A DNA stretch of 64,000 nt, taken from positions 117,678,001 through 117,742,000 of the forward strand of contig NC_086097.1 of the NCBI RefSeq assembly GCF_963921235.1, given 5' to 3'. The DNA comes from Mobula hypostoma (taxonomy: Eukaryota). How positions within the stretch are numbered: the first letter of the stretch is position 1; the number at the start of each line of letters is the position of its first letter. The position numbers were made by a program, and so were the translations under genes. Below, in pieces: positions 1 through 37,695 of the stretch. A model generated the notes under the pieces. The model did not search any database. It saw nothing but the letters and a program-made list of their open reading frames with translations, and was not told where the DNA came from.

Positions 1-444
1 GAGCGACCCTAAGGGTGGCCAGAGGGGCTACAAAAGAAAAAAAGAATTAAAAATTAAGACAAAAGACCAACACTCGATGCACAAGAAAGCAAATCATGCA
101 AACAATTGAAGCAAACAACAGCATTCCGAACCAAAACTGAGTTCTGAGATCCAAACCTTGGAGCAGTCTCACTTACGAGTTCATTGTATTAGTGGGCACA
201 GAGCACAGCAGCAGGGGTAGTCTTCATAGCCAGATCTCCATGGAGATGACCATCGTGGAGAACGAGCAAAATCAGCTCTCATCCTGACTGATACCCTGTC
301 TTTTCAGCCTACCTGGGCCGGCATTTAAATTGACCCAACAACGGGACTGCAAGAGGCTCCATGCCCTGGAATGAGGAGTAGAGATTGTGGAGAGCGAGCA
401 AAATCAGTTCTTCCCTCCAATCTGGGCTAGCATTTAAATTGAGA

Positions 445-740
445 AGAGGGATGTCCTGTTTGATGGGGGTCCCTAAAGATGGATGCCTCCTTCTGGCAGC
501 ATCACCTCTTGAAGATGTCCTGAATGCTGAGAAGGCTCATGTCCACGATGGAGCTGGCTAAGCTCACAACCCTCTGCAGCTTTTTCTGATGCTATGCAGT
601 GGCTCTGCCAGACCAGATGATAATGCATCCAGTTGGAATGCTCTCCACGGTACCTCTGTAAGACATTTGCTAGTCTTTGAGGACATTCCAAAATCTCCTC
701 AAACTCCGAATGAAATATAGCCACTGATGTGTTTTCTTTG
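445..740 (-). mobile_element. Rex1/Babar-like LINE, decayed C-terminal ORF2 fragment
   Basis: Minus-strand translation across frames reads ~KKTHQWLYFIRSLRRF...YRGTVESIPTGCIIIW...KKLQRVVSLASSI...IQDIFKR.C.QKEASIFRDP, the conserved post-RT domain of Rex1/Babar LINEs; contains stops and frameshifts. Confidence 0.75.
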
Positions 741-1062
741 TAACAACATTTGAGATTATTGCTGTCAGTTGAAGAGCGCTTCTTATTTCTTTTGAATTTT
801 ATGTCATTATATTGAGAATTACTGAAATAAATATACAGAACAGAAGACAGGGTTGTAGAAAGGAGAAGGTCCATCAACACGTCATTTGGATCATTGCTGT
901 ACTATATGTCGACATAGCTGAATACAATTAAATGCTTGATGCTGGTAGTGCTGACCTAAGAGAACATGCTGATGTTAGCTTGCTTATCGTGTCATGTTAG
1001 TGGATTTGGTGGATTGTGTGGCAGCCAAATATATGATACCTCTCAGTGCATTGAAATGTTTG

Positions 1063-1797
1063 AGGGATGGTACAGGTAGAGGCATGATCAGGTCCTGAAG
1101 ACCATCGCTGAAGCCGTCAGCGCAGGAGTTGAGTGGGCGAAGCGGTCCTGACCCTCCAAGCAGACCATTGCCTTTGTCAGAGCTGGGGAGCAGCCAATAC
1201 CTGCCAAAAGAACATCTGCAGGCATTCTGACCTCTGCAAGGGACTGGCAGCTGTTGGTGGACCTCAAAGGGCAGCTGAAGTTCCTCAACCATATCGCAGC
1301 CACCACCCTGCGACCAGACATTGTCCTAGTGTCTGAGTCTACTAAGCAAGTGGTGCTGCTGGAGCTGACAGTCCCATGGGAAGATAGCTTGGAAGAGGCC
1401 TTTGAAAGGAAGCTCTCCAAGTACGCAGGACTGGTCAGTAACTGTCAGCAGGCTGGATGGAGAGCGAGGTGTCTCCCAGTGGAGGTTGGTTGTAGGGGAT
1501 TCGTAGCCCGTTCTTTAGTTAGAGCCTTCAGCATTTTGGGCATCGAGGGAGAGAGGAAGAGGAGAGCCATCCGCAGTACCACTGATGCGGCAGATGGCCT
1601 CAAGATGGCTGTGGCTCAAAAGAGGGGAGCAATGGAGTCATAAGTAGCTAGCCATCTGGACAGAAGCTAGGGTCTGATCAGCCCTGGCTGGGTCACCTGG
1701 AGGAGGATGTCTGATGTTGAAAGACCCAAAACACCCGATGATTCCAGGAACATCACTGAAGATGTGTCCAGAAGCATCAATAGATGTGTGTACACAG
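1063..1797 (+). mobile_element. HERO-like (R2-superfamily, restriction-like endonuclease) non-LTR retrotransposon, 5'-truncated
   Basis: WYR.RHDQVLKTIAEA motif, then RPDIVL...LLELTVPWE...ERKLSKY...PVEVGCRGF (RLE PD-(D/E)xK-type domain; ORF 1254-1643), followed by a 3' UTR. Closely similar second copy at 51529-52812. Confidence 0.85.
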
Positions 1798-2719
1798 CTA
1801 GATAGACCATGTGGAGGATGAGGGTCATGGCTCACTTGTTGACCATCAGCTTTCTGCTGGGTTTGCGATTTTGATTGTCTGATTTAGGGAAAAATATTTT
1901 GCCCTTTGGGAGAAGGGCTGCAGCAATATGCCAGTCCTTCCATCTTCTCTGTAAATCTGTTAGCACAGCTGCATTGGGTGGCAGTATATTTTTTCTCCCT
2001 GTCTGCTGTTCCAGAACTTTATTGTACATAAACAGGCCTCAGGGCAATAGTAATAATAGTGCATTCACTCAAGGAAAGTAATATTTTGTCCTAAAGGGTT
2101 TCCTACCAGTGGGTCTTTATGTGATCTGGGGTCACGTAATTTGCTTAATGGAGAAAGACTGTGTGTAACTTTGATTAATGTGGGGAAGCTGATGGATGGG
2201 CAGCCACTACATGGTCCATACAGATCAGGTCCAGGGTCCAGTGGCAACTGGAGAACCTTCACCGCTGTAGCCTTCCTCCACCTTCACCATCGTCATCTGT
2301 CATTGTCTTCCATCATCTCCTGTGACTGCTGTTCCTGATGATCCAGTCTCAGTTAATTTTCCAAATATACCTACTAAGCCCTGATGCGTTGGAGGCCTGC
2401 TCCCGTGGCAAAGTAATCTCAAATGTTTGTTTCTTATATCACCGCTATTGTGCAGTATTTCTCGTGTAACAAACGAAGGCTCTAGAGATGGGTAAAGGAT
2501 GGTGGAGATAGGTACATGGTAAGCCCCACTGCCCTCTGAGCCATGGATAATCATTGGTCTTCCTTCCATTTTCTATCAAATCTCAGAACTCTTTATTTAC
2601 TTTACTCCCACAAGAGAAAAAAATACCCAACTATATTTGCCTTGAGAAAACATGAACTAATACTGCTAAGATGTTAAAAATTATGATTTTGTAGATCATC
2701 AGCTTTTACTCACTGTCAA

Positions 2720-2940
2720 ATCCAGGTTGTGTCACAATGAGGCCACCTCAGCGTGAAGGAACAACACCTTATATTCCATCTGGATAGCCTCCAACCTGAT
2801 GGCATGAATATTGATTTCTCCTTCTAGAAAAAAATCCCCCCTTCCCTTTCTTCTATTCCCTACTATGACCTCTTATCTTTCCTCACCTGCCTATCAATTC
2901 TCCCTGGGTCTCCTCCTCTTTCCCTTTCTCCTGTGGTCCA
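2720..2940 (+). mobile_element. Penelope-like element 3' fragment
   Basis: Matches the PLE at 50880-51120 (caacaccttatattccatctggatagcctccaacctgatggcatgaa..., then a pyrimidine-rich tract). Confidence 0.7.
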
Positions 2941-3010
2941 CAAGTTCATTGGCTATTTCATTTGCTTCAAAATATTGCTCAATTTGTTCAGTATACATCA
3001 TCCAGTTATC

Positions 3011-6000
3011 TAGAAACAGAGAGAAACATAGAAAACCTACAGCACAATATAGGCCCTTCGGACCTACAAATCTGTACCAAACATGTCCTTACCTTAGAAA
3101 TTACCTAGGGTTACACATAGCACTCCATTTTTCTAAGCTCCATGTACCTGTCCAGGAGTCTCTTAATAGACCCTGTCGTATTCACCTCCACCACCGCAGC
3201 CGGCAGCCCATTCCACCCACTCACCATCCTCAGCGTTAAAAACTTACCCCTGAAATCTCCTCTGTACCTACTTCCAAGCACCTTAAAACTGTGCCCTCTT
3301 GTGCTAGCCATTTTAGCCCTAGGAAAAAGCCTGACCCCATCCACACGATCGATGCATGTCATCATCTTATACACCTCTATCAGGTCACCTCTCATCCTCT
3401 GTTGCTCCAAGGAGAAAAGGCCGAGTTCACTCAACTTATTCTCATAAGGCATGCTCCCCTATCCAGGCAACATTCTTGTAAATCTCCTCTGCACCCTTTC
3501 TATGGTTTCAACGCACTTCCTGTAATGAGGCAACCAGAATTGGGCACAGCACTCCAAGTGGGGTCTGACCAGGGTCCTAAATAGTTGTAACATTACCTCT
3601 CGGCTCTTAACTCAATCCCATGATTGATGAAGGCCAAAGCACCGTATGCCTTCTCAACCACAGAGTCAACCTGCGTAGCAGGTTTGAGTGTCCTATGGAC
3701 ACGGACCCCAAGGTCCCTCTGATCCTCCACACTGCCAAGTCTTACCATTAATGCTATTTTCTGTTATTATACTTGACCTACCAAAATGAACCACCTCACA
3801 CTTATTTGGGTTCAACTCCATCTGCCACTTCTCTGTCCAGTCTTGCATCCTATCAATGTCCTGCAGTAACCTCTGGCAACCCTTCACACTATCCACAACA
3901 CTGCCAACCTTTGTGTCATGAGCAAATTTACAACCCATCCCTCCACTTCCTCATCCAGGTCATTCATAAAAATTACGAAGAGTAAGGGTCCCAGAATGGA
4001 TCTCTGAGGCACAACACTGGTCACCGACCTCCATGCAGAATATGAACTGAATTTACTCTCTGTGGGCAAGCCAATTCTGGATCCACAAAGCAATGTCCCC
4101 TCGGATCCCATGCCTCCTTACTTTCTCAATAAGCCTTGCATGGGGTAGCTTATTAAATGCCTTGCTGAAATCCATATGCACTACATCTGTGCTCTACCTT
4201 CATCGATGTGTTTAATCATATCCTCAAAAAATTCATTCAGGTTCATAAGGCATGACCTGCCTTTGACAAAGCCATGCTGACTATTCCTAATCATATTATG
4301 CCTCTCCAAATGTTCATAAATCCTGCCTCTCAGGATCTTCTCCATCAACTTACCAACCACTGAAGTAAGACTCACTGTTCAATAATTTCCTGGGCTATCT
4401 CTAGTCCCTTTCTTGAATAAGGGAACAACATCTGCAACCCTCCAATCCTCTGGTGCCTCTCCTGTCCTCATTGATGATGCAAAGATCATCGCCAGAGACT
4501 CAGCAATCTCCTCCCTCACTCCCACAGTAACCTGGGGAAGATCCGGTCCGCTTCTGGTGATTTATCCACCTTGATGCTTTCCAAAAGCTCCAGAACATCC
4601 CTTCCTTAATATCTACATGCTCAAGCTTTTCAGTCCACTATAAGTCATCCCTACAATCGCCAAGATCCTTTTCCGTAGTGAATACCGGAGCAACGTATTC
4701 ATTAAGTACTTCTGCTATCTCCTCCGGTTCCATACACAGTTTTCTACTTTCACACTTGATTGGTCCTATTCGTTCATGACTTATCCTCTTGCTCTTCGCG
4801 TACTTATAGAATGCCTTCGAGTTTTCTTTAATCCTGTCTGCTAAAGCCTTCTCATGGCCCCTTCTGGCTCTCCTAATTTCATTCTTAAACTCCTTCCTGC
4901 TAGCCCTATAATCTTCTAGATCTCAATCATTACCTAGCTTTTTGAACCTTTTGTCAGCTCTTCTTTTCTTCTTGACTAGATTTACAATAGCCTTTGTACA
5001 CCACGGTTCCTGTACCCTGCCATCCTTTCCCTCTCTCATTGGAATGTACCGAGCAGAACCCCATGCAAATATCCCCTGAATATTTGCCACATTTCTTCTG
5101 TACGTTTCCCTGAGAATATCTGTTTCTAATTTATGCTTCCAAATTCCTTCCTGATAGCCTTATATTTCACCTTAATCCAATTAAATGCTTCCCTAACTTG
5201 TCTGTTCCTATCCCTCTCCAATGCTACAATTAAGGATATAGAATTATGATCACTATCTCCAAAATGCTGTCCTGCTGAGAGACCTGACACCTGACCAGGT
5301 TCACTTCCCAATACCAGATCAAGTACAGCCTCTCCTCTTGTAGGCTTATCTACATATTGTGTCAAGAAACCTTCCTGAACACACCTAACAAACTCCACCC
5401 CATCTAAACCACTCACTCTAGGGAAATGTTAATCAATATTTGGGAAATTAACATCTCCCATCACAACAACCCTTTTATTATTACTCCTTTCCAGAATCTG
5501 TCTCCCTATCTGCTCCTCGATGTACCTGTTACTATTGGGTGGTCTATAAAAAAACACCCAGTAGAGTTATCGACCTCTTCCTATTTCTAACTTCCAACCA
5601 CAGAGATTCCGTAGACAACCCCTCCATGACTTCCACCTTTTCTGCAGCCATGACACTATCTCTGATCAACAGTACCACAACCCCACCTCTTTTGCCTCCA
5701 TCCCTGTCCTTTCTGAAACATCTAAGGCCTGGCACTTGAAGTAACCATCCCAGCCCCTGCACCATCCAAGTCTCTGTAATGGCCATAACATCATAGCTCC
5801 AAGTGCTGATCCACATTTTAAGCTCATCTGCTTTGTTCATAATACTCATTGCATTAAAATAGACACACCTCAAACCATTGGTCTGAGCATGTCCCTTCCC
5901 TATCACCTGCCAATCCTTCCTCTCGCACTGTCTCCAAATTTTCTCTATTTATGAGCCTACCACCCCTTCCTCCATCACTTCGGTTCGGTTCCCACCCCTC

Positions 6001-19496: not shown

Positions 19497-19975
19497 TCCC
19501 TCTCCCTTGCTCTCGTTTCCGTCCTCCCTCCTCCTCTCCTTCTCTCTCTCTCTTCCTCTCTCCTTCTCTCTCTCTTTCTTTCTCTCCCTCTCTCCCTTTC
19601 TCTTTCTCTCTCTGCCTTTCTCCCTTTCTCTTCCTCTCTCCCTCTCTTCCTCTCTCCCTCTCTTCCTCTCTTCCTCTCTCCCTCTCTCCTTCTCTGCCTC
19701 TCTCCCTCTCTCCCTCTCTGCCTCTCTTCCTCTCTCCCTCTCTCCCTCTCTCCCTCCCTCTCTCCCTCTCTTCCTCTCTTCCTCTCTCCCTCTCTCCCTC
19801 TCTCCCTCTCTCCCTCTCTCCCTCTCTTCCTCTCTTCCTCTCTCCCTCTCTCCTTCTCTGCCTCTCTCCCTCTCTCCCTCTCTGCCTCTTCCTCTCTCCC
19901 TCTCTCCCTTTCTCTCTCTCTCTCCCCTTTCTCTCACTCTCTCTCTCTATCTCTCTCTTTCCCCCCTCTCTCTCA
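19497..19975 (+). repeat. Polypyrimidine microsatellite, (CTCTCTCC/CTCTCTTC)n
   Basis: About 480 bp almost exclusively C/T with ~8-bp periodicity. Confidence 0.95.
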
Positions 19976-21904: not shown

Positions 21905-21990
21905 GGCATGGCAGTGTAATGCCTAGCACAATGCTTCACAGTACCAGTGACCCAGGGTACAGTTCCGCTGCTGCCTGTAAGGAGTTTGTA
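21905..21990 (+). mobile_element. V-SINE 5' half, split by the Gypsy element
   Basis: Matches 10927-11013 up to ...ctgtaaggagtttgta; the remainder lies at 37696-37885. Confidence 0.7.
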
Positions 21991-24900
21991 ATGCAGGTTT
22001 CTGCAAGTAAAACAAAGTGAGGTGTTTTATATCTAATGAAACCCGTAACATATTTTATTGAACTCCCTCAAAAGCTACATAATAAAAGCATGTTAAAACC
22101 CTTTTAATATCATCACATCAGACCAGCCTCTTAGTGAAATCCCAACTCAATGTCCATGGTTGTGAATTATGCACATGTCTCCCCATTATGATAGCCTACG
22201 TAGGCCCCACCCCAGAATTCACGACAACCAGCATTGTGAGCCTGCCTGAAGCTCGGATGAGCTGCCCAGCTCGGGTCCTGTGTTCCATAAGTGGAGGAAC
22301 CATAGGTGCCTCTGGCTCGTCCAGAGGTGTGTTGACACACACGTGGTCATGTTGTGATGCCAGGGGTGTGGCAGCAGTATGCTCCAAACCTTGGTGGGCC
22401 GGTTTAAGGCCATCTACCCAAATACGTTCCAGTTTACACCTCTTATCTATGACAAAAGTCTTTTCTCCCCATTCCAAAACACAAGGGGGCCTAAGGGGAT
22501 GCTGGTGTGTGTTATGGTGGATAAAAACAAACGAGGCAGAATGTAGGTCGACAGGGACCCAAGTGTGTTGGGAGACAGGAATCGGTGAATTTACTGAGGA
22601 GGGTGGAACACTGTTCAGAGGCCAACCAGGCAGTCATGGTGTCAGAAAGGAAATCACCTGGCATTCATAATGGCTGCCCGTATACCAGCTCAGCCACAGG
22701 CGACTGCAGGTTCTCCTTTGGAGCAGTTCTGAGCCTCAGCTGGACCCTCGCGAGCCGATCGTGATTAGTCAACTGATTAGTCAGGGAAGTCCTCAGAGCA
22801 GCCTTTAAGGAGTGGTGAGACCTCTTGCTTAGACCATTGGACTACGGGTGATATGCCATGATGTAATGTAGCCTAACGCCAAGGTTCTGGCCCATCGCAT
22901 CCCAGAGGTCTGAGATGAACGGGGGACCACAGCCAGAGGAAATATTGGGCCAAGCAACCCAGGTGCTGATGAATACCCAAGCCACGTCTGTGGTTGAGGG
23001 ACGACGTTTGGCCACCTGGTGGTGCAGTCCACCATGGTAAGAAGGTGCATGAAACAGCGGGAGGGAGGAAGAGGACCAACAAGGTCTACATTGACATGGT
23101 CAAACCATCACTCAGGGACCTCAAAAGGAACCAATATATCCTGAACATGGTGGTTAATTCTTGCCTACTGCCACTCCACACAAGCTGCCATCCAATCACA
23201 CACATCCTTTCTAAGGATGTGCCAAACAAACTTTAGTGCAACCAGTTTCCCTGAGACCTTCTGGCCTGGATGCGAGAGGCCATGTATGGGGTTGGAAGCA
23301 GACCATCTTCAATCTGTGGGCACAAACGCGTGATGGCAATCAGTTGAGACATCACACAGAAGAGAAACCCCAGCCTCCCCAAACATAATGTCAGCCATCC
23401 GCGGGCCTGTGACTGCTGTTTGGTAAGACTCGACCTCTGAGTCAGTAATTTGGTCAGCTATCATGCTGACAAAATCAACCCCTATGTGTACGGCCTCAGT
23501 GGCTGGCTGTGAGAGACAATTGGCCAGGGCATCATTTTTCCCCTTGATGTGCTGTATATCAGTTCTGAAATCAGATAGGTGGGCCAGGTGGCATTACTGC
23601 TGTGCAGACCAAAAATCGGATATTTTGGCCATCGTGTGCACGAAGGGTTTGTGGTCAAGAACGCTGTGAAATAGTGACCCTCTACAAGTAAACAAAAATG
23701 GTGGACAGCCAGATAGAGACCAAGAAGCTGACGGTCAAATGTGCTCTTCTTCCTTGGGGGAACAAAGCTGCCGGCTGAAGAAGGTGAGTGGCTGCCACAC
23801 GCCTCCAACCAACTGTTCATTCACAGCAAACACAGTACAGTCTGAGGCGTCAGTTGCAATGTCTATGGGTATATTGGGGAGCAGGTGAGCCAGTAGAGCC
23901 ATGTTAGAAAGAGCCCGTTTGGTATCATCAAATGCCCTGGTCACGTCCACTGACCAGTCAAGCCCTTGATTAGGGGTATTGCCTTTAAGCACACTATACA
24001 GGGGGAGCATGTTCAGCAGCTCGCAGAATGAAGTGGTGATAGAAATTCACCATGACGAAAAAACCCTGTCGTTTTTTTAATAGTGTGGGGTGGTGGGAAA
24101 TCCATAGTAGTGTCTACCTTTGATGGGAGGGGTTTCACACCTTCTGTGGAGATGCGATTGCCAAGAAACTCAATGGTTGACAACCCAAACTAGAACTTAG
24201 CAGGGTTAATAATCAACCCGTGTCAGAGTAAGTGCTGAAAAGGTGTGCAGAGATGAGATATGTGTTCAGATTTGGATGCACTGGCAGCAAATATGTCATC
24301 TGGGTAAACAAAAAGAAAGCCTAAGCTTTTCAATATAGAGTCCATCAGCCATTGGAATGTCTGTGCTACATTTTTCAGATGAAACAGCATGCGCAGAAAC
24401 TCAAAAAGGCCAAACAGGGTTCTCACAAGCTGTTTTAGGAATGTCTTTCGAGACCCACAGGTACCTGATGGCAGCTTCCAACTAGATCAACTTCGGAAAA
24501 ATATAACTTTCCAGCTAAGTGTGCCGCAAAATCTTGGATGTGGGCATTGATTAACGATGGGGGTGGTGGCCACGTTAACACGTGGGTAATCATCACATGG
24601 GCTGCACCCACTATCACACTTAGGGACTAGATGGACGGGAGAAGCCCGGGGCTACGTGACCGCTGTACGATTCCTAGTCTTTCCATGTTGGCAATCTCGG
24701 CTTTTGCAGTTGCCAGATTTTCTGGGTCCAGTGTACGCGCACAGGCCAGTTGAGGGATTGTGATGCTTGACCCCATGTTTTGCGAATCTATTGGAGAAAG
24801 TGGGCAAGGTGAGGTTTGGGAATTTGCCCAGCACTCGAGTAAACGCACATGCAGTCATGCATGCATTTGACAGAGTCATTGTGGGGAGCTCACTGGGGGA

Positions 24901-25139
24901 GCTATCATAAGGAGGTGGCTGGGGATGGACCCAAGTGCAAGACACAGACACTGAAGTACTAGGGACAAGACTAGGATACAGGATGATGGCAAGGACGTGG
25001 ACACGAAAACCAGGAACCTGGAACAGGACAGGACAAGAGAGTTAGGAGTCCGGGCTTGGACACCGAGCCAGACACTTGTCAAGGATCCAGTACCTGGGTC
25101 TTGCCTCTGGCTCTGACCCCAGAACTAGGCAAGGACGAG

Positions 25140-28100
25140 GCTTAGCAGGCAGGCAGGACGAGGCTGGAGTCTTCAGGTTTGAAGCTAGAGGTGAGACTTG
25201 GCAGGAGGCAGAAGGCTGGAGTCTTCAGGCTTGAGGCTAGAGGTGAGGCTTGGCAGGAGGCAGGAGGCTGGAGTCTTCAGGCTTGAGGCTTGAGGCTAGA
25301 GGCGAGGCTTGGCAGGAGGCAGGATGAGGCTGGAGTCTTCAGGCTTGAGGCTAGGCAGGAGGCTGGAGTCTTCAGGCTTGAGGTTAGGCAGGAGGCTGGA
25401 GTCTTCAGGCTGGAGGCTGGAGAAGGAGACTTGAGGCGAGGCTGGAGGCTGGAGGCAGGAGACTTGAGGCATGGCGAGGCTGGAAGCTGGAGCAGGAGAC
25501 CTGAGGCGAGGCTGGAGGCAGGAGACGAGGCGAGGATGGAGGCAGGAGGCAGGAGACCTGAGGCGAGGCTGGAGGCTGGAGGCAGGAGATTTGAGGCGAG
25601 TCTGGAGGCAGGAGGCAGGAGACGAGGCGAGGCTGGAGGCTGGAGGCAGGAGAATTGAGGCGAGGCTGGAGGCTGGAGGCAGGAGGCAGGAGACTTGAGG
25701 CGAGGCGAGGATGGAGGCTGGAGGCAGGAGACTTGAGGTGAGGCGAGGCGGGAGGCTCGAGGCAGGAGACGAGGCGAGGCTGGAGGCAGGAGACGAGGCG
25801 AGGATGGAGGCAGGAGGCAGGAGACCTGAGGCGAGGCTGGAGGCTGGAGGCAGGAGATTTGAGGCGAGTCTGGAGGCAGGAGGCAGGAGACGAGGCGAGG
25901 CTGGAGGCTGGAGGCAGGAGAATTGAGGCGAGGCTGGAGGCTGGAGGCAGGAGGCAGGAGACTTGAGGCGAGGCGAGGATGGAGGCTGGAGGCAGGAGAC
26001 TTGAGGTGAGGCGAGGCGGGAGGCTCGAGGCAGGAGACGAGGCGATGCTGGAGGCAGGAGACTTGAGGCATGGCGAGGCTGGAAGCTGGAGGCAGGAGAA
26101 CTGAGGCGAGGCTGGATGCAGGAGACTTGAGGCATGGCGAGGCTGGAAGCTGGAGCAGGAGACCTGAGGTGAGGCTGGAGGCTGGAGGCAGGAGACTTGA
26201 GGCGAGGCTGGAGACTGGAGGAAGGAGGCAGGAGACGAGGCGAGGCGAGGCTGGAGGCAGGAGACGAGGCATGGCAAGGCTGGAAGCTGGAGGCAGGAGA
26301 ACTGAGGCAAGGTTGGAGGCAGGAGACGAGGCGAGGATGGAGGCAGGAGGCAGGAGACCTGAGGCGAGGCTGGAGGCTGGAGGCAGGAGACTTGAGGCGA
26401 GGCTGGAGGCAGGAGGCAGGAGACGAGGTGAGGCTGGAGGCTGGAGGCAGGAGACGAGGTGAGGCTGGAGGCTGGAGACTTGAGGCGAGGCTGGAGGTTG
26501 CAGGAAGGAGACTTGAGGTGAGGCTGGAGGCAGGAGGAAGGAGACAAGGCATGGCTGGAGGCTGGAGGCAGGAGACTTGAGGCGAGGCCGGAGGCTGGAG
26601 GCAGGAGTCTTGAGGCGAGGCTGGAGGCTGGAGGCAGGAGGCAGGAGACTTGAGGCGAGGCGAGGATGGAGGCTGGAGGCAGGAGACTTGAGGTGAGGCG
26701 AGGCGGGAGGCTCGAGGCAGGAGACGAGGCGATGCTGGAGGCTGAAGGCAGGAGACGAGGCGAGGCTGGAGGCTGGAGGCAGGAGACTTGAGGCATGGCG
26801 AGGCTGGAAGCTGGAGGCAGGAGAACTGAGGCGAGGCTGGAGGCAGGAGACTTGAGGCATGGCGAGGCTGGAAGCTGGAGCAGGAGACCTGAGGCGAGGC
26901 TGGAGGCTGGAGGCAGGAGACTTGAGGCATGGCGAGGCTGGAAGCTGGAGCAGGAGACCTGAGGCGAGGCTGGAGGCTGGAGGCAGGAGACTTGAGGCGA
27001 GGCTGGAGACTGGAGGAAGGAGGCAGGAGACGAGGTGAGGCGAGGCTGGAGGCAGGAGACGAGGCATGGCAAGGCTGGAAGCTGGAGGCAGGAGAACTGA
27101 GGCGAGGCTGGAGGCAGGAGACGAGGCGAGGATGGAGGCAGGAGGCAGGAGACCTGAGGCAAGGCTGGAGGCTGGAGGCAGGAGACTTGAGGCGAGGCTG
27201 GAGGCAGGAGACAGGAGACGAGGTGAGGCTGGAGGCTGGAGGCAGGTGACTTGAGGCAAGGCAAGGCTGGAGGCAGGAGACGAGGTGAGGCTGGAGGCTG
27301 GAGACTTGAGGCGAGGCTGGAGGTTGCAGGAAGGAGACTTGAGGTGAGGCTGGAGGCAGGAGGAAGGAGACAAGGCATGGCTGGAGGCTGGAGGCAGGAG
27401 ACTTGAGGCGAGGCCGGAGGCTGGAGGCAGGAGTCTTGAGGCGAGGCTGGAGGCTGGAGGCAGGAGGCAGGAGACTTGAGGCGAGGCGAGGATGGAGGCT
27501 GGAGGCAGGAGACTTGAGGTGAGGCGAGGCGGGAGGCTCGAGGCAGGAGACGAGGCGATGCTGGAGGCTGAAGGCAGGAGACGAGGCGAGGCTGGAGGCT
27601 GGAGGCAGGAGACTTGAGGCATGGCGAGGCTGGAAGCTGGAGGCAGGAGAACTGAGGCGAGGCTGGAGGCAGGAGACTTGAGGCATGGCGAGGCTGGAAG
27701 CTGGAGCAGGAGACCTGAGGCGAGGCTGGAGGCTGGAGGCAGGAGACTTGAGGCATGGCGAGGCTGGAAGCTGGAGCAGGAGACCTGAGGCGAGGCTGGA
27801 GGCTGGAGGCAGGAGACTTGAGGCGAGGCTGGAGACTGGAGGAAGGAGGAAGGAGACGAGGTGAGGCGAGGCTGGAGGCAGGAGACGAGGCATGGCAAGG
27901 CTGGAAGCTGGAGGCAGGAGAACTGAGGCGAGGCTGGAGGCAGGAGACGAGGCGAGGATGGAGGCAGGAGGCAGGAGACCTGAGGCAAGGCTGGAGGCTG
28001 GAGGCAGGAGACTTGAGGCGAGGCTGGAGGCAGGAGGCAGGAGACGAGGTGAGGCTGGAGGCTGGAAGCAGGAGACTTGAGGCGAGGCTGGAGGCTGGAG

Positions 28101-31100
28101 GCAGGAGACTTGAGGTGAGGCGAGGCGAGAGGCTCGAGGCAGGAGACTTGAGGTGATGCTGGAGGCTGAAGGCAGGAGACGAGGCGAGGCTGGAGGCTGG
28201 AGGCAGGTGACTTGAGGCAAGGCAAGGCTGGAGGCAGGAGACGAGGTGAGGCTGGAGGCTGGAGACTTGAGGCGAGGCTGGAGGTTGGAGGCAGGAGACT
28301 TGAGGTGAGGCTGGAGGCAGGAGGAAGGAGACAAGGCATGGCTGGAGGCTGGAGGCAGGAGACTTGAGGCGAGGCCGGAGGCTGGAGGCAGAAGACTTGA
28401 GGTGAGGCTGGAGGCCGGTGACTTGAGGCGAGGCTGGAAGCTGGAGGTAGGAGACGAGGTGATGCTGAAGGCTGGAGGCAGGAGACTTGAGGTGAGGCTG
28501 GAGGCTGGAGGAAGAAGACTTGAGGTGAGGCGAGGCTGGAGGCAGGAGACTTGAGGCGAGGCTGGAGGCTGAAGGCAGGAGACGAGATGAGGCTGGAGGC
28601 TGGAGACTTGAAGCGAGGCTGGAGGTTGGAGGCAGGAGACTTGAGGCGAGGCTGGAGGCAGGAGGCAGGAGACGAGGCATGGCTGGAGGCTGGAGGCAGG
28701 AGACTTGAGGCGAGGCCGGAGGCTGGAGGCAGAAGACTTGAGGCGAGGCCGGAGGCAGGTGACTTGAGGCGAGGCTGGAGGCTGGAGGTAGGAGACGAGG
28801 TGATGCTGAAGGCTGGAGGCTGGAGGCAGGAGACTTGAGGCAAGGCTGGAGGCTGGAGGAAGAAGACTTGAGGTGAGGCGAGGCTGGAGGCTGGAGGCAG
28901 GAGACTTGAGGTGAGGCGAGGCTGGAGGCTGGAGGCAGGAATCTTGAGGCGAGGCAAGGCTGGAGGCTGGAGGCAGGGGACTTGAGGTGAGGCGAGGCTG
29001 GAGGCTGGAGGCAGGAGACTTGAAGCGAGGCGAGGCTGGAGGCTGGAGGCAGGAGACTTGAGGTGATGCTGGAAGCTGGAGGCAGGAGATTTGAGGCGAG
29101 TCTGGAGGCTGGAGGCAGGTGACTTGAGGCGAGGCTGGAGGCAGGAGACTTGAGGCAAGGCTGGAGGCAGGAGACTTGAAGCGAGGCGAGGCTGGAGGCT
29201 GGACGCAGGAGACTTGAGGTGATGCTGGAGGCTGGAGGCAGGAGATTTGAGGTGAGGCTGGAGGCTGGAGGCAGGTGACTTGAGGCGAGGCTGGAGGCAG
29301 GAGACTTGAGGCGAGGCGAGGCTGGAGGCTGGAGGCAGGAGACGAGGCGAGGCTGGAGGCTGGAGGAAGGAGAATTGAGGTGAGGCGAGGCTGGAGGCTG
29401 GAGGCAGGAGACTTCAGGCGAGGCGAGGCTGGAGGCTGGAGGCAGGAATCTTGAGGCGAGGCAAGGCTGGAGGCTGGAGGCAGGAGACTTGAAACGAGGC
29501 GAGGCTGGAGGCTGGAGGCAGGAGACTTGAGGTGATGCTGGAGGCTGGAGGCAGGAGATTTGAGGCGAGGCTGGAGGCTGGAGGCAGGTGACTTGAGGCG
29601 AGGCTGGAGGCTGGAGGCAGGTGACTTGAGGCGAGGCTGGAGGCAGGAGACTTGAGGCGAGGCGAGGCTGGAGGCTAGAGGCTGGAGGCAGGAAACTTGA
29701 GGCGAGGCTGGAGGCAGGAGACTTGAAGCGAGGCGAGGCTGGAGGCCAGAGGCAGGAATCTTGAGGTGAGGCGAGGCTGCAGGCTGGAGGCAGGAGACTT
29801 GAGGTGAGGCGAGGCTGGAGGCTGGAGGCAGGAATCTTGAGGCGATGCAAGGCTTGAGGCAGGGGACTTGAGGTGAGGTGAGGCTGGAGGCTGGAGGTAG
29901 GAGACTTGAGGCGAGGTGAGGCTGGAGGCAGGAGACTTGAGGTGAGGCGAGGTTGGAGGCTGGAAGCAGGAATCTTAAGGCAAGGCAAGGCTGGAGGCTG
30001 GAGGCAGGGGACTTGAGGCGAGGTGAGGCTGGGGGCTGGAGGCAGGTGACTTGAGGCAGGGCGAGTCTGGAGGCTGGAGGCAGGAGACTTGAGGTGAGGC
30101 AGGAGTCTGGAGGCAGGAGACTTGAGGCGAGGTGAGGCTGGAGGCTGGAGGCAGGAGACTTGAGGCGAGGTGAGGCTGAAGGCTGGAGGCAGGAGACTTG
30201 AGGCGAGGCGATGCGGGAGGCTGGAGGCAGGAGACTTGAGGCGAGGCGAGGTGGGAGGCGGGAGGCTGGAGGCAGGAGACTTGAGGTGAGGCGAGGCTGG
30301 AGGCTGGAGGCAGGAGACTTGAGGCGCGGCGAGGTGGGAGGCGGGAGGCTGGAGGCAGGAGACTTGAGGTGAGGCGAGGCGGGAGTCTGGAGGCAGGAGA
30401 CTTGAGATGAGGCGAGGCTGAAGGCTGGAGGCAGGAGACTTGAGGTGAGGCGAGGCTGGAGGCTGGAGGCAGGAGACTTGAGGCGAGGCGATGCGGGAGG
30501 CTGGAGGCAGGAGACTTGAGGCGCGGCGAGGTGGGAGGCGGGAGGCTGGAGGCAGGAGACTTGAGGTGAGGCGAGGCGGGAGTCTGGAGGCAGGAGACTT
30601 GAGATGAGGCGAGGCTGAAGGCTGGAGGCAGGAGACTTGAGGTGAGGCGAGGCTGGAGGCTGGAGACGAGGCGAGGCGAGGCTGGAGGCTGGAGGCAGGA
30701 GACTTGAGGCGAGGCGAGGCTGGAGGCTGGAGGCAGGAATCTTGAGGCGATGCAAGGCTGGAGGCAGGGGACTTGAGGTGAGGTGAGGCTGGAGGCTGGA
30801 GGTAGGAGACTTGAGGCGAGGTGAGGCTGGAGGCAGGAGACTTGAGGTGAGGCGAGGTTGGAGGCTGGAAGCAGGAATCTTAAGGCAAGGCAAGGCTGGA
30901 GGCTGGAGGCAGGGGACTTGAGGCGAGGTGAGGCTGGGGGCTGGAGGCAGGTGACTTGAGATGAGGCGAGGCTGGAGGCTGGAGGCAGGAGACTTGAGGC
31001 AGGGCGAGTCTGGAGGCTGGAGGCTGGAGGCAGGAGACTAGACAAGGCAAGGCTGGAGTCTGGAGGCAGGAGACTTGAGGTGAGGCAGGAGTCTGGAGGC

Positions 31101-34100
31101 AGGAGACTTGAGGCGAGGTGAGGTGGGAGGCTGGAGGCTGGAAACTTGAGGCAGGGCGAGTCTGGAGGCTGGAGGCTGGAGGCAGGAGACTTGAGGCAGG
31201 GCGAGTCTGGAGGCTGGAGGCTGGAGGCAGGAGACTAGACAAGGCAAGGCTGGAGTCTGGAGGCAGGAGACTTGAGGTGAGGCAGGAGTCTGGAGGCAGG
31301 AGACTTGAGGCGAGGCGAGGCTGGAGGCTGGAGGCAGGAGACTTGAGGCGAGGTGAGGCTGAAGGCTGGAGGCAGGAGACTTGAGGCGAGGCGATGCGGG
31401 AGGCTGGAGGCAGGAGACTTGAGGCGAGGCGAGGTGGGAGGCGGGAGGCTGGAGGCAGGAGACTTGAGGTGAGGCGAGGCTGGAGGCTGGAGGCAGGAGA
31501 CTTGAGGCGAGGCGATGCGGGAGGCTGGAGGCAGGAGACTTGAGGCGCGGCGAGGTGGGAGGCGGGAGGCTGGAGGCAGGAGACTTGAGGTGAGGCGAGG
31601 CGGGAGTCTGGAGGCAGGAGACTTGAGATGAGGCGAGGCTGAAGGCTGGAGGCAGGAGACTTGAGGTGAGGCGAGGCTGGAGGCTGGAGACGAGGCGAGG
31701 CGAGGCTGGAGGCTGGAGGCAGGAGACTTGAGGCGAGGCGAGGCTGGAGGCTGGAGGCAGGAATCTTGAGGCGAGGCAAGGCTGGAGGCTGGAGGCAGGG
31801 GACTTGAGGTGAGGCGAGGTTGGAGGCTGGAGGCAGGAGACTTGAAACGAGGCGAGGCTGGAGGCTGAAGGCAGGAGACTTGAGGTGATGCTGGAGGCTG
31901 GAGGCAGGAGATTTGAGGCGAGGCTGGAGGCTGGAGGCAGGTGACTTGAGGCGAGGCTGGAGGCAGGAGACTTGAGGCGAGGCGAGGCTGGAGGCTAGAG
32001 GCTGGAGGCAGGAAACTTGAGGCGAGGCTGGAGGCAGGAGACTTGAAGCGAGGCGAGGCTGGAGGCCAGAGGCAGGAATCTTGAGGTGAGGCGAGGCTGC
32101 AGGCTGGAGGCAGGAGACTTGAGGTGAGGCGAGGCTGGAGGCTGGAGGCAGGAATCTTGAGGCGACGCAAGGCTGGAGGCAGGGGACTTGAGGTGAGGTG
32201 AGGCTGGAGGCTGGAGGTAGGAGACTTGAGGCGAGGTGAGGCTGGAGGCAGGAGACTTGAGGTGAGGCGAGGTTGGAGGCTGGAAGCAGGAATCTTAAGG
32301 CAAGGCAAGGCTGGAGGCTGGAGGCAGGGGACTTGAGGCGAGGTGAGGCTGGGGGCTGGAGGCAGGTGACTTGAGATGAGGCGAGGCGGGAGGCTGGAGG
32401 CAGGAGACTTGAGGCAGGGCGAGTCTGGAGGCTGGAGGCTGGAGGCAGGAGACTAGACAAGGCAAGGCTGGAGTCTGGAGGCAGGAGACTTGAGGTGAGG
32501 CAGGAGTCTGGAGGCAGGAGACTTGAGGCGAGGCGAGGCTGGAGGCTGGAGGCAGGAGACTTGAGGCGAGGTGAGGCTGAAGGCTGGAGGCAGGAGACTT
32601 GAGGCGAGGCGATGCGGGAGGCTGGAGGCAGGAGACTTGAGGCGAGGCGAGGTGGGAGGCGGGAAGCTGGAGGCAGGAGACTTGAGGTGAGGCGAGGCGG
32701 GAGTCTGGAGGCAGGAGACTTGAGATGAGGCGAGGCTGAAGGCTGGAGGCAGGAGACTTGAGGTGAGGCGAGGCTGGAGGCAGGAGACGAGGCATGGCAA
32801 GGCTGGAAGCTGGAGGCAGGAGAACTGAGGCGAGGCTGGAGGCAGGAGACGAGGCGAGGATGGAGGCAGGAGGCAGGAGACCTGAGGCAAGGCTGGAGGC
32901 TGGAGGCAGGAGACTTGAGGCGAGGCTGGAGGCAGGAGGCAGGAGATGAGGTGAGGCTGGAGGCTGGAGGCAGGAGACTTGAGGCGAGGCTGGAGGCTGG
33001 AGGCAGGAGACTTGAGGTGAGGCGAGGCGAGAGGCTCGAGGCAGGAGACTTGAGGCGATGCTGGAGGCTGAAGGCAGGAGACGAGGCGAGGCTGGAGGCT
33101 GGAGGCAGGTGACTTGAGGCAAGGCAAGGCTGGAGGCAGGAGACGAGGTGAGGCTGGAGGCTGGAGACTTGAGGTGAGGCTGGAGGTTGGAGGCAGGAGA
33201 CTTGAGGTGAGGCTGGAGGCAGGAGGAAGGAGACAAGGCATGGCTGGAGGCTGGAGGCAGGAGACTTGAGGCGAGGCCGGAGGCTGGAGGCAGAAGACTT
33301 GAGGTGAGGCTGGAGGCCGGTGACTTGAGGCGAGGCTGGAAGCTGGAGGTAGGAGACGAGGTGATGCTGAAGGCTGGAGGCAGGAGACGAGGTGAGGCTG
33401 GAGGCATAGACTTGAGGTGAGGCTGGAGGCTGGAGGAAGAAGACTTGAGGTGAGGCGAGGCTGGAGGCAGGAGACTTGAGGCGAGGCTGGAGGCTGAAGG
33501 CAGGAGACGAGATGAGGCTGGAGGCTGGAGACTTGAAGCGAGGCTGGAGGTTGGAGGCAGGAGACTTGAGGCGAGGCTGGAGGCAGGAGGCAGGAGACGA
33601 GGCATGGCTGGAGGCTGGAGGCAGGAGACTTGAGGCGAGGCCGGAGGCTGGAGGCAGAGGACTTGAGGCGAGGCCGGAGGCAGGTGACTTGAGGCGAGGC
33701 TGGAGGCTGGAGGTAGGAGACGAGGTGATGCTGAAGGCTGGAGGCTGGAGGCAGGAGACTTGAGGCAAGGCTGGAGGCTGGAGGAAGAAGACTTGAGGTG
33801 AGGCGAGGCTGGAGGCTGGAGGCAGGAGACTTGAGGTGAGGCGAGGCTGGAGGCTGGAGGCAGGAATCTTGAGGCGAGGCAAGGCTGGAGGCTGGAGGCA
33901 GGGGACTTGAGGTGAGGCGAGGCTGGAGGCTGGAGGCAGGAGACTTGAAGCGAGGCGAGGCTGGAGGCTGGAGGCAGGAGACTTGAGGTGATGCTGGAAG
34001 CTGGAGGCAGGAGATTTGAGGCGAGTCTGGAGGCTGGAGGCAGGTGACTTGAGGCGAGGCTGGAGGCAGGAGACTTGAGGCAAGGCTGGAGGCAGGAGAC

Positions 34101-35975
34101 TTGAAGCGAGGCGAGGCTGGAGGCTGGACGCAGGAGACTTGAGGTGATGCTGGAGGCTGGAGGCAGGAGATTTGAGGTGAGGCTGGAGGCTGGAGGCAGG
34201 TGACTTGAGGCGAGGCTGGAGGCAGGAGACTTGAGGCGAGGCGAGGCTGGAGGCTGGAGGCAGGAGACGAGGCGAGGCTGGAGGCTGGAGGAAGGAGAAT
34301 TGAGGTGAGGCGAGGCTGGAGGCTGGAGGCAGGAGACTTCAGGCGAGGCGAGGCTGGAGGCTGGAGGCAGGAATCTTGAGGCGAGGCAAGGCTGGAGGCT
34401 GGAGGCAGGAGACTTGAAACGAGGCGAGGCTGGAGGCTGGAGGCAGGAGACTTGAGGTGATGCTGGAGGCTGGAGGCAGGAGATTTGAGGCGAGGCTGGA
34501 GGCTGGAGGCAGGTGACTTGAGGCGAGGCTGGAGGCAGGAGACTTGAGGCGAGGCTAGAGGCTGGAGGCAGGAAACTTGAGGCGAGGCTGGAGGCAGGAG
34601 ACTTGAAGCGAGGCGAGGCTGGAGGCCAGAGGCAGGAATCTTGAGGTGAGGCGAGGCTGCAGGCTGGAGGCAGGAGACTTGAGGTGAGGCGAGGCTGGAG
34701 GCTGGAGGCAGGAATCTTGAGGCGACGCAAGGCTGGAGGCAGGGGACTTGAGGTGAGGTGAGGCTGGAGGCTGGAGGTAGGAGACTTGAGGCGAGGTGAG
34801 GCTGGAGGCAGGAGACTTGAGGTGAGGCGAGGTTGGAGGCTGGAAGCAGGAATCTTAAGGCAAGGCAAGGCTGGAGGCTGGAGGCAGGGGACTTGAGGCG
34901 AGGTGAGGCTGGGGGCTGGAGGCAGGTGACTTGAGATGAGGCGAGGCGGGAGGCTGGAGGCAGGAGACTTGAGGCAGGGCGAGTCTGGAGGCTGGAGGCT
35001 GGAGGCAGGAGACTAGACAAGGCAAGGCTGGAGTCTGGAGGCAGGAGACTTGAGGTGAGGCAGGAGTCTGGAGGCAGGAGACTTGAGGCGAGGCGAGGCT
35101 GGAGGCTGGAGGCAGGAGACTTGAGGCGAGGTGAGGCTGAAGGCTGGAGGCAGGAGACTTGAGGCGAGGCGATGCGGGAGGCTGGAGGCAGGAGACTTGA
35201 GGTGAGGCGAGGTTGGAGGCTGGAAGCAGGAATCTTAAGGCAAGGCAAGGCTGGAGGCTGGAGGCAGGGGACTTGAGGCGAGGTGAGGCTGGGGGCTGGA
35301 GGCAGGTGACTTGAGATGAGGCGAGGCTGGAGGCTGGAGGCAGGAGACTTGAGGCAGGGCGAGTCTGGAGGCTGGAGGCTGGAGGCAGGAGACTAGACAA
35401 GGCAAGGCTGGAGTCTGGAGGCAGGAGACTTGAGGTGAGGCAGGAGTCTGGAGGCAGGAGACTTGAGGCGAGGCGAGGCTGGAGGCTGGAGGCAGGAGAC
35501 TTGAGGCGAGGTGAGGCTGAAGGCTGGAGGCAGGAGACTTGAGGCGAGGCGAGGTGGGAGGCAGGAGACTTGAGGTGAGGCGAGGTTGGAGGCTGGAAGC
35601 AGGAATCTTGAGGCGACGCAAGGCTGGAGGCAGGGGACTTGAGGTGAGGTGAGGCTGGAGGCTGGCGGTAGGAGACTTGAGGCGAGGTGAGGCTGAAGGC
35701 TGGAGGCAGGAGACTTGAGGCGAGGCGATGCGGGAGGCTGGAGGCAGGAGACTTGAGGCGAGGCGAGGTGGGAGGCGGGAGGCTGGAGGCAGGAGACTTG
35801 AGGTGAGGCGAGGCGGGAGTCTGGAGGCAGGAGACTTGAGATGAGGCGAGGCTGAAGGCTGGAGGCAGGAGACTTGAGGTGAGGCGAGGCTGGAGGCTGG
35901 AGACGAGGCGAGGCGAGGCTGGAGGCTGGAGGCAGGAGACTTGAGGCGAGGCGGGGCTGGTGTCTTCAGGCTGGA
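25140..35975 (+). repeat. Purine-rich complex tandem array built from GAGGC, GAGGCTG and GAGGCAGGAGACTT modules, with higher-order repeats
   Basis: About 10.8 kb of these modules; higher-order offsets of 268 bp (25711/25979), 826 bp (26929/27755) and 4925 bp (28551/33476) are visible from near-identical ORF translations. Confidence 0.98.
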
Positions 35976-36352
35976 GGCTAGGCAGGCTCCTCCGGGGCAT
36001 GGCGCGGTTCACGTGGGCAAGGCGCAGTACTCCTGGGCAGGGCGCGGATCACCACCCGACAGAGGCAAGGGACAGGAAGGGACAGAACCAACCACAGGTA
36101 ACGTCAAGACAGCCTGGCTTACCTGGGTGGAGGCAAGGGACAGGAAGGGAGCTATGTACAGGGTGGCTCCAGGACAAGACGACAAGGCAAGGCAAGGCTT
36201 CAGGCAATGCAAGGCGTGAAGAGGACTTCAGGCGAGGCGAGAGTTACCGGCAGGACAAAGCAGGGCTTCAGGTGTGGAAACAGAAGGCAGAGGAAGGGAT
36301 ACAAGGAGTAAGGACAAGAACAATCCAGCAGTCACGCCCTGGTCTCTGAAGG

Positions 36353-36360
36353 TATTTATG
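36353..36360 (-). promoter_or_regulatory. TATA-like box of the solo LTR
   Basis: CATAAATA on the minus strand ~140 bp inside the TGTCATGG terminus, the usual U3 position, pointing into the array. Confidence 0.5.
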
Positions 36361-36857
36361 CAGCCAGCCCCAACGAGCATCAGCTGCCTCAATTGGAGCT
36401 CAACAAGAACAGAAACAGGGTAGATAGGAAAACCTGGAGCAAAGGTCGATGTACTGGACTGTGAACCGGAATACAGACTTCACGGACCGGACCATGACAG
36501 GAGCAGGGTAACAGACAACCGCAAGCCAGCAGTTCTAAAGATTGACCAAAAGTTCTTGAGTACACAGTAAATCTGCACTGAGCAGCAGTCTAGCCACTTT
36601 AGTCAGGATAAGTCCCATGCGTAACGTCGGCTACTGAAGGAGAGTGTCACCTGTCGTATCGCGTAGGTCTGACTCCTGCTGCTATTGGTGGTCTCCAGTG
36701 AGGTTTCGTCACTCTTTTCCTTCTCATCAATAGGCGATGCCAACAGAACACTCACTTCAGCACTTGTGTCACGCAGGAAGCATCATTCTGAAAGGGTGTC
36801 TGTGTTGCACAGTTGGAACCCTGGCAGCTGGAACACAAGGTATTCACATATGTCTGA

Positions 36858-36907
36858 TGATAATATTAATAACAATAATATTAAGTACTTTATTGATCCT
36901 CAATGGG
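36858..36907 (-). mobile_element. Extremely 5'-truncated LINE 3' tail inserted in the Gypsy gag/protease region
   Basis: Minus strand cccattgaggatcaataaagta plus an AT-rich tail; matches the ggatcaataaagta LINE end at 47160-47173. Confidence 0.55.
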
Positions 36908-37456
36908 ATGACCAATGTGCTGCCACTGTTGAAGCTGCAAGGTGGTTGACACTTCCTCGTGTTCCTACCAGAATGAGCAAGGTACAAGCAAAGGCCCGAC
37001 ATCGTCTGTCTTGCAGATATGGGCGTCTTTACATTGAGGACCTTGCTGACTGGGTTTATTGAGGTAGAGAAAGGAGGAGGAATGATGCACCACTGCCTAG
37101 CTGAGTGTAGACTATCAGCCATTTTGGCAAGCTCCCTGTAGCCCTTCATGGGTGCATTAATGAGGGCTATGCGAACTTGATCAGGCATTCGCTGCATAAA
37201 GAGTTCTTTAAAACTAATCCAAGGATGGTGATTTCCCAGGAGAGACAGCATGTGGTCCATTAGGTCCAACAGCTTAACATCACCAAGACCGGGCAAGGAG
37301 AGCAATTGTTTGGCGTGCTCTCACTCTGACCGTCCAAAAGTCTGCAGAAGGTGATTTTTCAGCAATCGGTACTAATCATGCTCGGGCAGACTCACTGCTC
37401 TTGCTGCCATGGAATTGCTGAGATACACGTTGGCTAACTCCAGAATCGTCCTAGAG

Positions 37457-37470
37457 CATAGGAGTCACCA
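37457..37470 (-). promoter_or_regulatory. Primer-binding site (tRNA-Trp-like) of the Gypsy element
   Basis: Minus strand TGGTGACTCCTATG directly after the 5' LTR; 11 of 14 match TGGTGACCCCGACG, the tRNA-Trp complement typical of CsRn1-clade elements. Confidence 0.7.
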
Positions 37471-37695
37471 AATAAAACAAAGGTTTCCACAAATAAAATG
37501 AAGTGAGTTGTTTTATGTTTAACAAAACGCGTAACACATTTTATTGAATTCCTCCAAAATCTACACAACAAAAGCTCGCTGTAAAACTTCTTCATAATAA
37601 CGTCATCACATCGGATCAGCCTCTTAAAGCTCAACCCTTACTTAATGTCGGTGGCTATGAATTACGTACATTTCTCCCAATTGCTTTACCCTACA

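Follow-up and report, generated by a model that had tools for sequence, protein, structure and literature searches.

Organization of the locus

The DNA analysed in this study (the window) is a stretch of 64,000 bp, C1:117678001-117742000 of the 3.48-Gb Mobula assembly, and contains no N. As listed in Table 1, it was confirmed that positions 24903-36499 are a solo LTR on the minus strand, inserted into the pol region of an older Gypsy element. An earlier note on this DNA had described the edges TATCAT and ATGACA with GGAGC on both sides, and these letters were found exactly so: GGAGC is followed by TATCAT at 24898-24908, and ATGACA is followed by GGAGC at 36494-36504. On its own strand, the window element runs from TGTCAT to ATGATA, and most of its paralogues run from TGTCAT to ATGACA. 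Thus, the TG...CA ends that the note names as a mark of LTR insertion are those of the family, and the window copy has TG...TA because one transition changed the terminal CA to TA (the other copies have G at 24904).

The host is a decayed Gypsy element. Two of its 12 stop-free frames have Pfam matches; PF17919 (RNase H-like, E=3e-10) lies at 23738-24046, and a weak RVT_1 match (E=0.0014, below the cut-off) lies at 24226-24486. One frame tested on the 36505..37690 side gave no Pfam match. In paralogues of the host, the right flank is colinear in 14 of 14, which bears out the proposal that the Gypsy pol is interrupted and resumes across the element. A single GGAGC is present in 12 of the 14, so the duplication was produced by the insertion, and the empty-site comparison suggested in the note came out in favour of it.

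Public contigs carry the same boundaries. Hundreds of contigs from four runs with four organism labels diverge at 36499/36500, which marks the family boundary outside this assembly too. Contigs from two runs, X1 and X5, span the left junction; run X1 has no differences to the flanks, may be the source sample, and is not independent. A contig of organism B bridges this junction (36+38 letters; flanks 1.4-4.3% different), so the insertion is likely older than the split from organism B. Contigs of runs X10 and X13 do not bridge the insertion site, nor do they clearly pass over it. Elsewhere in the window, a pyrimidine-rich CCTCTCTC microsatellite of 450 bp occupies 19523-19972.

Table 1. Features of the window (window positions) and the other loci of the family with arrays of at least 5 kb (contig positions where given)
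Feature	Position	Strand	Length	Remark
Host: decayed older Gypsy, RT / RNase H-like side, outer end approximate	21990..24897	-		Extent from paralogues
Target-site duplication (TSD), left copy GGAGC	24898..24902	.		Single GGAGC in 12/14 empty-site paralogues
Solo LTR of a non-coding, TRIM-like, Gypsy-derived family	24903..36499	-	11,597 bp	
LTR 3' end (inferred U5 side), ends ATGATA	24903..25136	-		AGTACT where AATAAA might be expected
Array edge with ancestral GTCTTCA-containing 52/33-bp units	25137..25418	-		
Expanded core array	25407..35960	-		About 275-281 units, mostly 26-45 bp, of 5-/7-bp words; nested block duplications at lags 268-4925
Single ancestral-type edge module, other array end	35956..35979	-		
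LTR 5' part (inferred U3 and start of R), starts TGTCATGG	35980..36499	-		
12-mer complementary to family primer-binding site, LTR position 171-182	36318..36329	-		Predicted transcript 5' end and self-primer
TATA-like ATAAATA, LTR position 141	36353..36359	-		Present in 41/48 LTRs
Target-site duplication, right copy GGAGC	36500..36504	.		Same 14 paralogous host sites
Host Gypsy, 5' side, outer end approximate	36505..37690	-		Colinear with paralogues
C5 copy			28,539 bp	Perfect TSD
C9 copy			27,395 bp	Perfect TSD
C22 copy			6,959 bp	Perfect TSD
C45 copy			About 5,550 bp	Perfect TSD
C36 copy			5,087 bp	Perfect TSD
C12 two-LTR copy	C12:59390070-59464073		74,004 bp: 5' LTR 60,802, interior 183, 3' LTR 13,019	TSD AATAG
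C21 two-LTR copy			About 69,200 + 1,180 bp	TSD GATTC; middle 28 kb known from search matches only
C18 copy			81.9 kb, with assembly gap	TSD 4 of 5
C2 two-LTR copy			5,790 + 1,057 bp	TSD 4 of 5
C36 two-LTR copy			68,690 + about 1,100 bp	
C45 array	C45:78848770-78993567		About 144 kb, gap-free, largest seen	LTR 5' half at one end only
C36 array	C36:54320000-54421441		About 101 kb	One LTR half; array middle inferred between fetched parts
C5 array	C5:86027237 to beyond 86097000		At least 69 kb	One LTR half
Further C5 array			At least 18 kb	One end only
C55 array			About 6.6 kb	One end only
C91 array			35 kb	Neither LTR half; assembly gap at one side

The array in the window

The array spans 25137-35979 by TRF and is a long head-to-tail array, as expected of a satellite, with an assembled length of 10.8 kb. 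TRF reported three periods: 52 bp at 25137-25354, 33 bp at 25258-25418, and 38 bp (281 copies) at 25407-35960. The GCTGGAGTCTTCAGG module lies at 25163, 25215, 25267, 25329, 25362, and 25395, and a variant of it lies at 35956. Thus, the longer unit reported for both array edges is indeed there, except that its right-hand position is 35956 and not 35957. The commonest unit lengths are 26, 31, 33, 36, 38, and 40 bp, which are steps of 5 and 7, and words of 5 or 7 bp account for 76% of the array bases, a pattern expected from module slippage. A 20-bp unit repeated three times at 35995-36053 belongs to the LTR 5' part.

Blocks of the array are duplicated in a nested way; examples are a block of 1,129 bp with a 99.9% copy at lag 4,925, one of 803 bp (lag 826), and one of 663 bp (lag 2,560). 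The strongest lags are 4925, 826, 2560, 2320, 1415, 1024, and 268, and the internal blocks are 99.0-99.9% identical. All units are head-to-tail, and the variants change along the array. A coding array was considered and rejected: the minus-strand frames are open for 1,378-1,913 codons, but this is judged compositional because the strand is 50% C, has only 28 stop triplets, and all three frames are alike.

Might the assembler have inflated a real array through false block duplication? The array is known from contigs, and exact repeats of at least 100 bp cover 9,464 of its 10,843 bases (87%), so its exact length could be misassembled. The 1,129-bp block repeated 4,925 bp away at 99.9% would also be expected of such an error. 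On the other hand, there are 6,827 distinct 101-mers among 10,743 array positions, which makes a short true array unlikely. The duplicates occur at many lags with substitutions and module indels, the changing variants do not suit false duplication, the window lacks N, and the same architecture is found at many other loci. Inflation is thus very unlikely.

A high-copy family of LTRs with a built-in repeat

The two flanks of the array had been called unique sequence, which they are not: a first look at the genome gave 4,313 and 2,944 candidates for the two non-repetitive flanks. These figures are lower bounds and not copy numbers, and 40 candidates were scored per flank. I listed 78 non-self places and fetched 74, which were picked by similarity to the window copy and not at random. 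Both LTR halves are colinear and less than 2 kb apart in 71 of the 74 paralogues, so the flanks come from one LTR family and not from unrelated repeats. Of the three others, two have lengths of 2.6-2.8 kb, and the third leads into an array of 144 kb. In 48 start-end pairs, the LTR is about 0.83-1.7 kb long (median about 1.16 kb), and the 5-bp duplication is perfect in 29 and 4 of 5 in 11, in a scoring that was free to shift by a few bases.

The short spacers of these LTRs (16 inspected) are small arrays made up of the 5- and 7-bp words seen in the window array. The edge module GCTGGAGTCTTCAGGC occurs in 37 of the 48 spacers; it is the ancestral repeat and is family-wide. This agrees with the suggestion that the edge unit is an ancestral LTR minisatellite, and it supports the growth of the satellite from an LTR-internal repeat. 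Nine of the 48 also have the 28-bp core that dominates the window array. Thus, of the claim that a satellite was born at the window locus, the expansion is likely, but the dominant 28-bp core did not originate there.

Some family copies consist of an LTR, an interior, and a second LTR. The interior is non-coding, 159-183 bp long (about 160 bp), and ends in a purine-rich, G-rich polypurine tract; it has 666 candidates in the genome. In a paired-repeat test, 15 LTR pairs with a 4/5 or 5/5 TSD were found among 30 internal-region loci. A tandem copy with three LTRs and two interiors lies at C21:78307983-78316125 (8,143 bp, TSD TAGAC), and a similar one was seen at C40:47730000-47734024. In the window, positions 61759-61794 match the 3' end of the family interior over 36 bp (86%), which suggests that another, related LTR element lies around 61.8 kb.

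The interior opens with 12 bases that can pair with the LTR at position ~171. In 48 of 51 LTRs, taken from 29 of the 30 internal-region loci, 11-12 of the 12 bases pair (G-U allowed), and shuffled controls reach such pairing in 10 of 500. The pairing site lies exactly 30 bases after ATAAATA in 37 of 37 LTRs with the intact motif. On this sequence pattern, the family bears a Tf1/sushi-type self-priming signature and a transcript start can be predicted. In the window copy, the pairing would put that start near 36329 and the array within the transcribed R/U5 part. AATAAA and ATTAAA are absent from the last 110 bases in 37 of 37 LTR ends, and AGTACT is present in 31 of 37. The absence of AATAAA near the LTR end makes the assignment of R and U5 tentative and was counted against the best explanation.

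The interior-start motif is shared with 8 of 25 DUF4939-gag loci in this genome. Several DUF4939-gag Gypsy families have this motif in common with the TRIM-like family and resemble it at the LTR 3' end. An autonomous element with the family LTR was not found among 25 of the 150 listed DUF4939-gag loci, which also counts against the best explanation. One of these loci (L166) was considered as the autonomous partner and rejected: it contains the family LTR, but upstream of gag and in the opposite orientation, so this LTR was taken for a nested insertion.

Giant arrays at other copies

Four array queries were used, with 9-40 of more than 2,000 candidates scored for each, and 23 loci were followed. 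At least one LTR half bounds 22 of these array-picked loci, and 15 of the 23 are 5 kb or longer. Including the 144-kb locus on C45, there are 16 other loci with arrays of 5 to about 144 kb (Table 1); 15 of them have at least one LTR half and 7 have a perfect TSD. The suggestion that the LTR family carries and disperses expandable arrays is thus well founded at these 16 loci. Up to three giants lie on one contig, tens of Mb apart, and the arrays found in this partial search total roughly 0.75 Mb. No LTR 3' half was found within 45 kb beyond the far end of the 144-kb array, which abuts sequence that I take to be LINE-like. The idea that expansion is limited to the window-type module was dropped, because a GTCTTCA-type query also led to giants. 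In 4 of the 5 giant two-LTR copies (C21, C36, C12, C2, and C5) the 5' LTR is the longer one; these are too few for a bias.

The giants may be compared with each other. Among the 25-mers of the window array, 92% recur inside it and 0-44% occur in the 16 other arrays. The longest exact match to any of the 16 is 77 bp, against 877 bp within the window array. The dominant modules differ between loci. These figures bear on whether long arrays were copied into LTRs from an older master satellite, by capture or ectopic gene conversion. Many giants do have the same words, with 19-44% of 25-mers in common, the 35-kb C91 array has no visible LTR half, and the comparison covered 16 other arrays only. The C91 array also counts against the main reading given below. 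A master satellite nevertheless fits poorly with a longest shared match of 77 bp, with an LTR half at 22 of the 23 array-picked loci, with dominant modules that differ between loci, and with the ancestral modules kept at both edges. Such a source is most improbable.

Timing and probable mode of growth

The two LTRs of one retrotransposon copy are identical at insertion. In this family, the LTR pairs are now 92.4% identical (median), and the two lengths differ by more than 30 bp in 11 of the 15 TSD-matched pairs. The giant pairs are strongly lopsided, such as about 69 kb versus 1.2 kb and 60.8 versus 13.0 kb. In the window array, the newest internal duplications are less diverged than the organism B flanks and the LTR pairs. 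Since each array is particular to its locus and has internal duplications that seem younger than the insertion, growth in place after insertion is most likely. Old duplications can come to look young through gene conversion, and this was counted against the timing from young blocks.

It was also considered that the LTR was already many kb long at reverse transcription and insertion. The array does lie downstream of the predicted transcript start, and the C12 copy has two long LTRs with 60-79% of their 25-mers in common. The C12 arrays share a 413-bp exact block, while their non-array parts are 83-96% identical; this block suggests that the two arrays exchanged sequence after the insertion. In this copy, two long LTRs with shared variants would also be expected if the array was moderately long when it was inserted. 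However, an LTR of ~1.1-1.2 kb is paired with one of 5.8-69 kb in four giant copies, and a fifth has 1.2 kb with at least 18 kb. Together with internal duplications less diverged than the LTR pairs, the lopsided pairs largely refute great length at insertion, which has hardly any probability left.

A one-step origin was weighed as well, in which an excised repeat circle was amplified by rolling circle and re-inserted at the locus. The head-to-tail order of all units and the large size jumps between copies would suit it. It would be expected to leave a single higher-order period, and there is none: the lags of the window array are mixed, and in the giants elsewhere, exact repeats 0.4-2.1 kb long recur at equally mixed lags of roughly 1-12 kb. 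This origin is highly unlikely.

The main reading is therefore that the solo LTR in the window comes from a high-copy, non-coding family of two-LTR elements, that its insertion into an older Gypsy produced the 5-bp TSD, and that its built-in repeat, at first a few hundred bases long, likely grew to 10.8 kb in place after insertion; I put the probability of this reading at roughly 0.8. Recombination-driven growth in place, with a step size that scales with array size, is the favoured inferred mode. An autonomous Tf1/sushi-type Gypsy may have mobilised the element in trans, with reverse transcription primed by the 5' end of the element's own transcript. As self-priming would mean that the array is transcribed as part of R/U5, every new copy would receive a seed. 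Recombination between the two LTRs would leave a solo LTR. Slippage may gain or lose words of 5 and 7 bp, and misaligned recombination or template switching in the array may duplicate blocks of hundreds to thousands of bases. Because the step size would rise with array length, a small share of copies would run away to tens of kb and more. The runaway copies are probably too long to retrotranspose and would persist where they are as local satellites. I propose no host function.

A broader reading is that the family is a genome-wide satellite seeder: an unstable modular repeat, placed in the part of the LTR copied at each retrotransposition, would have spread thousands of seeds, roughly 1/100 of which ran away independently to 5 to more than 100 kb. 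I hold this reading tentatively, at slightly less than even odds. If it is true, the rate, the step sizes, and the locus dependence of satellite birth are measurable in a vertebrate. The passage from a short repeat to a long satellite must usually be worked out when its traces have already disappeared. Here there may be dozens of replicate events from the same seed, with LTR ends, TSDs, and sometimes an unexpanded twin LTR. The two LTRs of a copy are the same at the outset and give the age of the insertion, so that every lopsided pair provides its own control for time zero. Thus, multiplicative, recombination-driven, and location-dependent models of growth are testable on one family. In addition, 'LTRs' of 10-80 kb exist, and length-limited annotation will miss them.

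Comparison with known systems

Self-priming by the transcript 5' end is described for the Tf1/sushi group (V-clade) of Gypsy elements in PMC6317226, and the LTR features of sushi elements are given in PMC3601003. An AATAAA close to the LTR 3' end is expected of the group. The Mobula family resembles this group in its TG...CA ends, its 5-bp TSD, and a primer site that pairs with the LTR shortly after a TATA-like box, and its interior start is like that of DUF4939-gag elements in this genome. It differs in lacking a coding region and an AATAAA near the LTR 3' end, and in having an expandable array in the LTR.

In PMC6934838, TRIMs are defined by direct repeats of 100-250 bp, an element size below 1 kb, and a tRNA-complementary primer site. 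The Mobula family is similarly non-coding, with two direct repeats, a short interior, a polypurine tract, many solo copies, and some tandem three-LTR copies. However, its LTRs are 0.8-1.7 kb, its total length exceeds 1 kb, and its primer site pairs with LTR position 171-182. The family works like a TRIM but is not a strict member.

The mouse minisatellites Ms6-hm and Hm-2 are reported to lie within MaLR LTRs (Kelly 1994, PubMed 7713502; PMC9659126; PMC6947457). They are alike in being tandem arrays inside the LTRs of a non-autonomous vertebrate retroelement. Those are two loci, whereas the Mobula family is Gypsy-derived, has a standing modular repeat of 26-45 bp, and has 16 further loci of 5 to about 144 kb. 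The mouse arrays reportedly have units of 4-5 bp and sizes up to about 20 kb.

In Lathyrus sativus, tandem repeats in the 3'UTR of Ogre/Tat elements seed satellites (Vondrak et al. 2019, PMC7004042). Here too, short arrays inside a dispersed Gypsy-type element occasionally expand to long arrays. The Ogre arrays belong to the 3'UTR of plant elements that are large and autonomous, were deduced from read statistics, and are long mainly in primary constrictions (PMC7004042). The Mobula arrays, in contrast, sit within an LTR whose element is tiny and non-coding, the giants are resolved with their ends and often a TSD, and up to three of them share a contig at spacings of tens of Mb. The SINE-derived satellites of squamates are also independent arrays from part of a dispersed retroelement; they have a SINE source, modest amplification, and a likely subtelomeric location (PMC10702118). 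The Mobula arrays have an LTR source, reach about 144 kb, and are mostly interstitial.

In the literature searched, which left most subscription journals and Repbase/Dfam outside, no account of this LTR family or of serial giant arrays inside LTRs was found. The published precedents make the window locus alone less surprising. Satellite growth inside LTRs is already known, and the new part is serial giant expansion with paired-LTR internal controls.
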